Positions 1 to 3,000 of a DNA stretch of 16,064 nucleotides are shown in pieces (within the stretch, counting starts at the first letter, position 1; every line of letters begins with the position of its first letter). The stretch comes from a virus. The DNA lies in UHGV virus genome UHGV-1966638, one strand, 5' to 3'. Position numbers: made by a program.

Positions 1-3000
1 ATGTTGCTTTCAGACCTTGCTATCCGCCGCGCGAAGCCAAAAGAGAAAGCCTATACACTCAATGACGGCAACGGGCTTTCGTTACTCATTGAGCCGAACG
101 GTTCGAAGGGCTGGCGATTGCGATACAGGTTTGCAGGCAAGCCCAAAATGTTGTCGCTGGGTGTTTATCCTGAGGTGTCCCTTTCTGATGCCAGGACGGC
201 AAGGGATGAGGCCAAAAGGCTTATCGCTGGTGGAGTTAATCCGAGTGAGGTCAGAAAGGCCCAAAAGCGAGAACAGGCGAACAAATGCGGTAACACCTTT
301 GAGGCGATCGCCCGTGAGTGGTATGAAAAACGCCTGGACCGATGGTCTCCCTCATATGCAGAGGAAATGATAGAGACGTTTGAAAAAGACGTTTTTCCGT
401 ACATTGGAGGTAGGCCCATCGCAGAGATTAAGCCGATGGAATTGCTCGCGGTTCTATCCCGTCTTAATGACCGTGGCGCAACTGAAAAATTGCGTAAGGT
501 TCGCCAGCGATGTGGCGAAGTGTTCCGGTACGCAATAATTACCGGACGCGCTGAATATAACCCCGCTCCTGATCTGGCAAGCGCATTTGCACCACACAAG
601 AAAGAGCATTACGCGTATCTGAAAGTTGATGAGCTACCGGAGTTTTTCCGCGTTTTTAATACGTACACCGGAAGCCAGATCGTCAAGCTGGGTATGCGAT
701 TGTTGATTCTTACAGGACTCCGCCCTGGTGAATTACGGCAGGCAGAGTGGCAGGAGATTGATTTTGATAATCGTCTGTGGGAAGTGCCGAAAGAACGAAT
801 GAAAATGCGCCGTCCTCATTGCGTGCCGCTTTCAGAACAGGCGATTGCTATTCTGGAACAACTGAAACACATGACGGGGCAGTATCCGTTTATTTTCCCT
901 GGTCGAATACAGCACAGTAAACCGATGAGTGAAATGGCGATGAACGTGCTTATTCGTCGTATTGGTTATGCAGGGCGTGTTACTGGTCATGGGTTCCGGC
1001 ACACCATGAGTACGATTTTGCACGAGCAGGGGTATAACTCCGCATGGATAGAAACGCAGCTGGCGCACGTCGATAAAAACTCGATCCGTGGCACATACAA
1101 TCACGCGCAATATCTGGACGGACGGCGGGAGATGCTCCAGTGGTACGCCGACTATATGGACTCACTGGAACAGGGCGGTAACGTGGTGCACGGCAAGTTT
1201 GGTGTATGTGCATAAAAACGACTGGACAAGTATACAGATGTATACTAACGTACACGGAAAGCTACAGCTAACATCCTTACAGAGGGTTTTTCACGCAGTT
1301 ATCCGTCATGTATGGGCGCTCTTTGTAACAACGAAGATTGAGTCTTCTACGCAGCTGAAAAGCTGGATGCTCTTTAACAGCCTTTAGTGCTTTCCTGATG
1401 CAGGAAAGAATGGTGATATATGCACTATTACAAAGCATGTAATGATTCATCCATGAGGCGGTGGAGCGCTGGCAAAGTGCTGTTGATCTTTAACATTGAT
1501 GCGGCGGGATGGTTCGTCCCGCAGTGACCGATAGATTTGCTATCGGGAAACATACAACGATTCAAATATGAATCTACGGCGCTGACAAAGCGCAATTGCT
1601 TTCTTGTCCGCCCACCATGTACTGAAAAAACGCTCTTTAAAACTACTGGACGTCACGCCTAATCGTGTGACCCCGCCGAAAGCGGGAATAGCTCTACCTT
1701 GCTGGAGCATACCAACCAAACAATCTGAATTTATCTTATGCAATACCACAACATGTTTTCATGTTGTGGTTTTTGTCGTGTTCGTAATTTGACGCAAATA
1801 AAACTCTTACTAAGCCACAGGAGGGGATTTCCGCGTCAACATTAAGGAGATTGATAAATGGCTAATAACAATTCATTCATCCGTCTTTCTGAAGTTATGC
1901 GCCGTACTGGTTATGGTCGCGCATGGATTTATCGCCTGATCAGCCTGGGGCGTTTCCCTAAACCGGTAAAAATTGGTCCCCGCTCCGTGGCTTTTATTGA
2001 AAGTGAAGTCGACGAATGGATTAACCAGCGTATTGATGCTTCTCGCAACAACGCCGCGTAATAATCTTTTGGGTGGGGGGTATTCTCCCCCAGCACTAAA
2101 CCTGATCCGATAGCAGGAGTTTTTCAATGAAACGTCCGAATATGCTCGTACAGGGGCAGGGCTTCGTTCAGCCCGAAGAACTGAGCCAACAGTATTTCGC
2201 CGCAATTATTCCGGTAATTTCCGGCAATGAGATTATTGCTGACGGAATAAATAAAAATGCACTCACCGCGCCGGAAGTGTTTCCTTCTGGCGGTGAGCCT
2301 GTAACCACTTCACAGGCTATCGCCCGATTTTTCAGAAAGGATCACGATAAGGTTGTTAACCGGATTGAAAACCTGTGTTGTTCTGCTGAATTTTTAACCC
2401 GCAATTTTCGGCGGGTAAAATTTGAGCATAAGGGGCGCGTATTGAAAGCCTACGAAGTCACCAAAGACGGCTTCGTGTTTTTAACAATGGGATTTACCGG
2501 AAAAAAAGCGGCTGCATTCAAAGAGGCATACATTGCGCAGTTTAACCGCATGGCTAACTGGATAGCAGAGAGATGTGAGGCCAAAGCTGAGATGCGCTCT
2601 ATGGGGGATGCCATGAAGGGATACATTGAGCGCACTGGAGATACTCAACACGGTCATGCTTATAACAACGAATGTACTTTCATTGCGCGCCTTGTATTAG
2701 GGATGCACCCGCCTGTATGGGCCAAAAAAACGGCATCCCATCAAAAAAAGTTCGTGACCATATGACCGCTGATCAACTGGCGTTGCTCGCGTATCTGGAA
2801 AGCCGTAACTGTGCGCTACTGGATATGGATATGCCAACGCCAGAACGTAAAGAACGTCTCACCGAATTAGCCCAACGCTGGCTGGTCCGTCGCCTGGGAG
2901 AACGTGAACATGCCTGACATCCGCAACGCTGCCGCCCTGTACATCGATACTGCGGATAAGTTCGCACAGGTGAGCATCAACCATGCTGATTACATGCGCC

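Follow-up and report, generated by a model that had tools for sequence, protein, structure and literature searches.

What has happened to the reading frame of rha in the virus genome UHGV-1966638, and does the change leave a broken gene, a recoded gene, or merely an error in the sequence? The window considered here is the whole stretch of 16,064 nucleotides (nt) that was analysed from this genome, and rha, which encodes a regulator of the Rha family, is the first gene after alpA on an Escherichia coli integrative island with a P4-type integrase. A first-pass annotation had observed that the Rha-like frame changes by one nt at a run of seven adenines (A7), and had offered three explanations: a sequencing error, a genuine inactivating mutation, or slippage-dependent expression. 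Our findings indicate that the A7 form of rha is probably a young, lineage-specific pseudogene or hypomorph. The deletion that converted a run of eight adenines (A8) to A7 is real; it was a single event in one island lineage and has been inherited since. The frameshift as such is already known, as RefSeq flags the gene as a pseudogene.

The truncated open reading frame (ORF), whose codons start at positions divisible by 3, encodes a protein of 212 amino acids (aa), in which residues 60-143 match the Phage_pRha domain (PF09669; E 2e-22, 79.9 bits against a cut-off of 29.9). The -1 frame, with codon starts at positions that leave 2 on division by 3, is open from 2666 to the TGA at 2915-2917, and both frames stay open over an overlap of 98 nt. 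Aligned with a 254-aa Rha protein from Salmonella (P0017), the upstream frame covers residues 8-200 with an E value of 3e-110, only the out-of-frame tail lying beyond residue 193, while the downstream frame matches residues 194-249 with 84% identity (E 2e-34). Since the upstream frame ends and the downstream frame resumes at P0017 residues 193/194, the junction lies at the first of two A7 runs, 2724-2730 and 2743-2749. Insertion of one A at the first run yields an uninterrupted ORF of 263 aa, and this restored protein scores 78.9 bits with TIGR02681 (cut-off 45.95), which places it in the Rha family. The initial description of the locus, with a one-nt shift at the first run, a second A7 run after it and a Rha-like C-terminus in the downstream frame, is thus borne out in full by the alignments. 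The continuous two-domain ORF found in phrog_2657 and in all diverged homologues is absent from the window, where the C-terminal 62 aa sit in the -1 frame. The Prokaryotic Genome Annotation Pipeline (PGAP) places the start of the pseudogene at ATG 2142 rather than at ATG 2127. Gene finders predict a 51-aa ORF in other assemblies with the A7 allele; this is a piece of the Rha C-terminus and no conserved gene of its own, and it is not a separate gene in intact alleles. There is also a third A7 run in rha, at 2501-2507 in the region of the pRha domain (GGA AAA AAA GCG, G-K-K-A), which is in frame here and constitutes another potential indel hot spot.

In a survey of 5,426 complete E. coli genomes, at least 80% of rha was present in seven. 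Three have the A7 allele (JNEC-KY203 at 100% identity, S1-KEN-03-A and S1-KEN-04-A at 99.9%), and the gene is intact in the other four: Z1323HEC0477 and STEC005/STEC719 (263 aa each), and 2013C-3033 (268 aa). When the window was aligned with the intact E. coli alleles at the DNA level, the sole gap within the shared rha coding sequence fell in the first A run. As the first-pass annotation had proposed might be found, intact homologues, which are 90-96% identical, have A8 or AGAAAAAA at this position and uninterrupted ORFs of 263-268 aa. The A8 form is present in Z1323HEC0477, in STEC005/719, and at loci L016, L031-L038, L040 and L041; the AGAAAAAA form is found in 2013C-3033 (GCC AGA AAA AAC). 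Because the intact alleles have A8 at the same spot, the window carries a one-nt deletion in an ancestral A8 tract. This single indel accounts for the break, and the orthologues are continuous across the site, as in other genes classed as frameshifted pseudogenes. The restored 263-aa sequence exists exactly in nature (P0002), in a Logan assembly with A8 that has a different island backbone (L016). Annotated with a later start, the same protein (P0007) occurs on nine contigs, with A8, and at one of its loci (L031) the gene adjoins a D5-type primase in place of DUF927.

Alleles with A8 that otherwise correspond to that of the window are also found in metagenomes, L040 and L041 being among the A8 loci listed above. 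Five metagenome contigs have A8 in two cases, A7 in two, and A6 in one, the last at 2.25x coverage. An A9 allele (P0025, locus L039), whose product ends in WAKKKRHPIKKSS and then a stop, has a background that is about 88% identical and comes from a single metagenome contig of 1.2 kb with unstated coverage. The A tract is therefore a mutational hot spot, with A6 and A9 known from single short metagenome contigs. In a codon view of 14 genome loci, the diverged genera Photorhabdus, Orbus, Erwinia, Acerihabitans, Edaphovirga, Brenneria, Pectobacterium and Xenorhabdus lack the homopolymer, the corresponding codons being AAA ACT CGC, AAG TTA CAT, AAA CAG AAT, AAA AAT AAG and others. A scan of IMG/VR for the tract returned 0 matches, so the element is not represented in that database. 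The split arrangement with A7 occurs in a single allele, whose copies in the various assemblies are at least 99.9% identical, and no diverged homologue shows it; this speaks against the possibility, raised at the outset, that a 212-aa protein followed by a 51-aa ORF is the conserved layout.

Is the deletion present in the DNA or only in the sequence record? The exact 212-aa product was found in a collection of 15 billion proteins on 429 contigs, in 678 index blocks drawn from NCBI, ENA, Logan and JGI. We read 25 of the carrying contigs, which represent nine distinct places; MRE600 (CP014197.1) and an NCTC strain are among them. Over 791 nt each of the nine matches the window, being either 100% identical or different by A2902G alone, which is synonymous in the C-terminal frame. 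The identical A7 sequence was obtained from independent Illumina and hybrid assemblies, from Logan short-read assemblies, and from hybrid complete genomes. RefSeq/PGAP labels the gene "Rha family transcriptional regulator, frameshifted" in JNEC-KY203 (AC0JZ7_RS04795) and in S1-KEN-03-A (V6S29_RS18390). A sequencing or assembly error, in which case the true sequence would be A8 and the gene intact, has next to no likelihood. Homopolymers are typical places for indel errors, and one locus with the window's own backbone does read A8 (L015, NCTC assembly GCA_901420315.1, CABDVM010000003.1), but the exact product recurs on all these contigs from unrelated projects and technologies, and nine out of nine loci have A7 in otherwise identical sequence. 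Compared with the window, the L015 sequence contains ten +1 insertions in 5.9 kb, each of which doubles an adjacent base or lengthens a short run. Since it is so laden with insertions, its A8 is best read as an error. The same insertions split the integrase and DUF4222 genes of L015, and indel calls from that assembly should be treated with caution.

What does the deletion remove from the protein? Normal Rha, with its 263 aa, consists of an N-terminal pRha winged-helix DNA-binding domain, the fold of which resembles winged-helix regulators in a Foldseek comparison with the PDB, and an all-helical C-terminal module of about 115 aa. The latter is 62-73% identical to the module of AntA-type proteins encoded at the same locus in sister islands. 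In an alignment of 21 sequences with both pRha-type and AntA-type N-termini, 36 columns are invariant, and 15 of these lie past the frameshift: R210, M213, Q217, L218, L220, Y223, L224, D233, D235, R241, K242, L245, L248, R251 and L253. In an AlphaFold2 model based on 53 sequences, the C-terminal module has a predicted local distance difference test score of 87-92, with helices at 159-170, 178-191, 195-201, 215-233 and 238-260; the break after Lys201 strips off the last two, which are the longest of the module. The family phrog_2657 spans residues 52-251 as one unit. According to the model, the break is located inside a compact domain and not at a linker or a domain boundary. A break that splits a compact domain makes loss or strong reduction of Rha function the most likely outcome, as judged from conservation and predicted structure. 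Of the inactivating mutation suggested in the first-pass annotation, the mutation itself is thus genuine, inherited and present in many assemblies, and inactivation is what the conservation and the model point to.

The C-terminal module has no match over threshold in Pfam or NCBIfam. Foldseek against the PDB returned only a weak DdrC-like match (E 1e-3, TM score about 0.3), in which the DdrC architecture is a winged helix plus a helical dimer; the similarity to DdrC in NCBIfam has an E value of 0.009, far under the cut-off, and the matches in BFVD are generic Rha or antirepressor "regulatory proteins". The arrangement recalls the Rha (PF09669/TIGR02681) and AntA/AntB (PF08346) regulators and antirepressors with their shuffled domains, inasmuch as the pRha domain scores well above threshold and the module is common to both; the window differs in that its C-terminal module is divided over two frames. 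N-terminal domains are swapped at this one locus, where AntA/AntB can be fused to the same C-terminal module (for example at 665-1513 of L045). The AntA/AntB version is present in many E. coli islands (O157, O103, O111 and O145 strains), where the flanking DNA on either side is the same as around the pRha form.

These observations can be accommodated in a simple sequence of events. Replication slippage in this island lineage removed one A from the A8 tract, and translation now runs out of frame after Lys201, adding 11 unrelated residues before it stops at 2763-2765. The C-terminal module thereby loses its last two long helices along with the 15 invariant residues. The mutation arose once and was passed down a near-clonal, widely sampled island lineage. 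Full-length Rha would be made only through an unselected leak: by a -1 ribosomal slip at an A_AAA_AAG heptamer in the second A7 run, by a -1 slip elsewhere in the two-frame stretch, or by rare insertion of an A by RNA polymerase. A known counterpart is the class of homopolymer-indel pseudogenes that PGAP calls "frameshifted": they have in common with rha a single one-nt indel in a mononucleotide run, continuous orthologues, and the absence of any other lesion. Nothing substantive differs, and what the window has in addition is the fortuitous presence of A_AAA_AAG in register.

That heptamer, which the deletion has put in register, is the only mildly novel point, and it could give rise to some leak from the allele. 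Read in the mutant frame, the second run is CAA AAA AAG, with codons AAA at 2745 and AAG at 2748, and a -1 slip there enters the C-terminal frame to give ...WAKKTASHQKKVRDHM..., in which NGIPS is replaced by TASHQ and everything else is normal; the five residues changed are poorly conserved. By analogy with published suppression data, near-normal Rha at a few percent is plausible. Such a leak would be fortuitous, since without the deletion the heptamer would be out of register. Among E. coli heptamers A_AAA_AAG is the one most prone to shifting, and compensation of a nearby -1 mutation by an A_AAG site is on record (PMC5009743). In two E. coli test proteins, non-programmed -1 suppression of 1-bp deletions reached 1-10% in aggregate (PMC10861913). 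The ATGA at Met213 could, in addition, allow reinitiation on the 51-aa ORF. Neither this overlap nor the in-register heptamer is mentioned in the first-pass annotation. Most genomic A_AAA_AAG sites that have been tested reportedly show more than 1% frameshifting.

Could the frame change be a device rather than a lesion? Programmed recoding, by -1 frameshifting at 2744-2750 or by transcriptional slippage, would give 212-aa and 263-aa products at a set ratio, both of them functional. A dnaX-type heptamer does stand in exact register, with the lesion 14 nt before it and the stop 13 nt after it, a shift at this point recovers all but five poorly conserved residues, the downstream frame is intact, and recoding is common in mobile elements (PMC5009743, PMC1088944). 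Yet the register depends on the deletion, and in intact alleles the same bases encode Ser-Lys-Lys. Folding of 2751-2810, 2751-2850 and 2731-2790 revealed no stem-loop or pseudoknot 5-9 nt 3' of the heptamer; four folds around and after the A runs gave z values of +0.8 to -1.5 against shuffled controls, and the one hairpin of notable size lies past the stop codon, its start being 26 nt beyond the second run. No Shine-Dalgarno-like element is visible upstream of the heptamer in 2725-2742, the two-frame layout is present in no diverged homologue, and the A tract is absent beyond the E. coli clade. The E. coli dnaX gene has the identical heptamer, which is in the correct zero-frame register in the mutant rha mRNA as well, and in both cases a -1 shift is involved, the one in rha opening the C-terminal frame. 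However, dnaX possesses an upstream Shine-Dalgarno-like element and a downstream stem-loop, whereas rha lacks stimulators; unlike that of dnaX, the register of the rha heptamer exists only in the mutant allele and the layout is not conserved; and the shifted product is the shorter one in dnaX but would be the longer one in rha. As for transcriptional slippage, productive slippage by bacterial RNA polymerase is associated with A/T runs of 9, sometimes 8 nt (PMC1088944), and A7 is below that length. The genes that use it (an insertion sequence (IS) element with A9, Shigella mxiE with T9, Thermus dnaX with A9; PMC1088944) resemble rha in having two overlapping ORFs joined at an A run, and in the association with a mobile element; they differ in that the rha run has only 7 nt, is not conserved, and is replaced by A8 in orthologues that are in frame. 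Apart from the slippery sequence, no defining feature of programmed frameshifting or slippage is present, and we regard programmed recoding as extremely improbable. Slippage-dependent expression, proposed in the first-pass annotation, accordingly finds no support as a selected mechanism, and a low-level leak may be what is left of it. A variant of this idea is that the leak itself is selected, in the manner of a "savior indel": A7 would lower Rha to a few percent, all of it derived from the -1 shift at the heptamer or from RNA polymerase slippage. If so, a low dose of Rha would have been selected, such that the island stays inducible and toxicity or premature induction is avoided, and this would account for A7 being the most sampled allele. 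Systems of this kind, namely suppression at (G_UU)A_AAG and the G-run mutants of the herpesvirus thymidine kinase (PMC5009743), likewise have an indel in or near a homopolymer and a shift-prone site close by that could supply a little near-wild-type protein. In rha the leak is deduced from the sequence and there is no sign that a low level is needed or selected. A selected leak is very unlikely.

Two further explanations assume that the A7 state is reversible or beneficial. The run could be a phase-variable switch, an A8 contingency locus that toggles Rha by slipped-strand mispairing, with the window showing the OFF state. The occurrence of A6, A7, A8 and A9 in public assemblies of close alleles would be in line with this, as would the independent A9 allele (P0025/L039) in a different allele background. 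But the weight of the A6 and A9 contigs is limited by the coverage of the former and by the length and unstated coverage of the latter, the tract is not conserved among homologues, and all reliable loci of the window's backbone have A7, the lone A8 (L015) being in the error-laden assembly. With A7 at every reliable backbone locus, the data indicate one ancestral event and not switching; no repeated ON/OFF switching within the lineage was found in the 25 carrying contigs that were read. Moreover, in mismatch-repair-proficient E. coli the mutation rate of an A8 tract is far below that of classical phase-variable tracts, which counts against phase variation. We therefore deem a switch very unlikely. 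Alternatively, the truncation may be adaptive: the lesion would have been selected, either for loss of the C-terminal module or because the DNA-binding half is kept as a dominant-negative or repressor-like, functional product of 212 aa. The island would possibly be stabilised in this way, or be less toxic and less prone to helper-prophage induction, with a 51-aa peptide possibly made by reinitiation at the ATGA. A7 is indeed the most often sampled allele of its cluster, the pRha domain and its Shine-Dalgarno sequence are intact, the ATGA at the invariant Met213 permits termination-reinitiation, and the remainder of the island appears intact in the window. On the other side, clonal host lineages would explain the abundance just as well, no diverged homologue is truncated at this point, the break in the AlphaFold2 model splits a compact helical module with no domain boundary, and no Shine-Dalgarno is seen in the sequence before ATG 2762. 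Selection for the truncated form is thus unlikely, and a young pseudogene or hypomorph explains the allele better.

Several points nevertheless weigh against a simple loss-of-function mutation. Loss of function is what conservation and the structural model suggest. The pRha domain survives complete in the truncated protein, together with the long helix 126-155, and DNA binding could be retained. The A7 allele occupies 429 contigs, whereas none of the intact alleles listed in its 90% cluster is on more than 39, an abundance that would fit clonal spread and would equally fit selection in favour of the lesion. No further lesion has accumulated in the downstream frame, which fits a recent event and likewise a maintained recoded gene. 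Finally, the diversity of the A7 allele comes down to one synonymous site (A2902G) among the loci read, too little for a test of purifying selection.

Coordinates of the features of rha and of the neighbouring island genes in the window
Feature	Position	Strand	Remarks
Tyrosine integrase	1-1215		
AlpA	1858-2061		
Shine-Dalgarno-like AGGAG	2115-2119	+	7 nt 5' of ATG 2127; read from sequence
Truncated Rha ORF, 212 aa	2127-2765	+	pRha winged-helix domain and first half of helical C-terminal module
A7 run, site of the one-nt deletion	2724-2730	+	GCC AAA AAA AAC to GCC AAA AAA AC; DNA alignment, run-length table and codon view
Out-of-frame conserved C-terminus	2729-2917	+	NGIPSKKVRDHM...RWLVRRLGEREHA; TGA 2915-2917
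A_AAA_AAG heptamer	2744-2750	+	within second A7 run; exact X_XXY_YYZ register in mutant frame
ATGA overlap	2762-2765	+	TGA 2763-2765 of truncated ORF over ATG 2762-2764, codon of invariant Met213
51-aa ORF of gene finders	2762-2917	+	predicted in other assemblies with the A7 allele (gene 3636-3791 in L006-L012)
Out-of-frame tail TASHQKKFVTI, 11 aa	end of ORF 2127-2765	+	translation after Lys201
Start of next ORF over rha stop (8 nt)	2910-2917	+	ATGCCTGA; GGGAG 2896-2900, 9 nt 5' of ATG
C4 antisense RNA	4106-4193		Rfam RF01695, 77.7 bits
Icd-like domain	about 4272-4400	+	NF033153

The first-pass annotation had also described the downstream frame as coupled to the next gene. At the level of the sequence this is correct, as ATG 2910 overlaps the rha stop by 8 nt; the same overlap, with the same N-terminal peptide, is present in related islands, including after antA-type genes. 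Since translation of the A7 allele stops 145 nt before ATG 2910, any translational coupling would be lost. The next ORF (2904-4418, plus strand) is annotated by RefSeq as a 502-aa "host cell division inhibitor Icd-like protein" (WP_001625862.1), the frame being open for 504 codons. This ORF is clearly over-extended. Only the last approximately 45 residues match the Icd model NF033153, and the ORF crosses two minus-strand genes, a plus-strand terminator-like site at 4062-4075 and the C4 RNA. In sister islands Icd is annotated with 56-67 aa, and the corresponding long frame is open for 341-633 codons; the long open frame is apparently a shadow of the minus-strand genes. The first 105 or so codons of the long ORF (2910 to about 3230, plus strand; MPDIRNAAALYIDTADKF...AISEAGGQ) recur after rha-type and antA-type genes, and in related islands this segment always overlaps the upstream stop by 8 nt. 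It may be a real small gene without a nearby in-frame stop; its product has no family match in Pfam, PHROGs or NCBIfam. The small minus-strand ORFs 3224-3535 and 3599-3778 share a C-terminal motif (FALEEFLRKYPRRL and FALEAFLDKYPRRL), and the counterpart in a sister island bears the annotation YlcI/YnfO family protein. Both run convergently to the rha operon, and a GC-rich terminator-like hairpin (3157-3137, minus strand) with a T-run comes after them.

Further along, the island carries genes for DUF4222, a DUF927 primase/helicase, SSB, a Dcm-type methylase and a second tyrosine recombinase. We considered the label of a P4-like satellite and rejected it: the 16 kb showed none of the genes psu, sid and delta, and the element is better described as an integrative island that has AlpA and a P4-type integrase. 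At 8776-10927, a C-5 cytosine methylase of 379 aa is followed by an overlapping ORF of 358 aa without a family match, possibly the restriction partner of the methylase. The second tyrosine recombinase (531 aa) lies at 13890-15485, close to the end of the window. Two of the A7 carriers have IS4-family elements just 5' of rha, at 1668-2780 in L001 (JNEC-KY203, IS421) and at 1785-2897 in L006. The integrase of JNEC-KY203 is also frameshifted, and the L006 island lacks the segment between the post-rha ORF and SSB. The IS insertions, the frameshifted integrase and the lost segment are signs of ongoing decay of the island lineage.

In itself the finding matters little: it is a further case of an accessory gene on a mobile island disrupted by a homopolymer frameshift, and RefSeq has flagged it. 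The A7 allele does mark a specific island lineage. Together A8 and A7, the latter including the laboratory strain MRE600, form a natural allele pair that is usable to measure unselected -1 leak at an in-register A_AAA_AAG in its native context. The availability of intact and broken alleles could, moreover, help to assign a function to the C-terminal module of Rha- and AntA-type proteins on islands with P4-type integrases.

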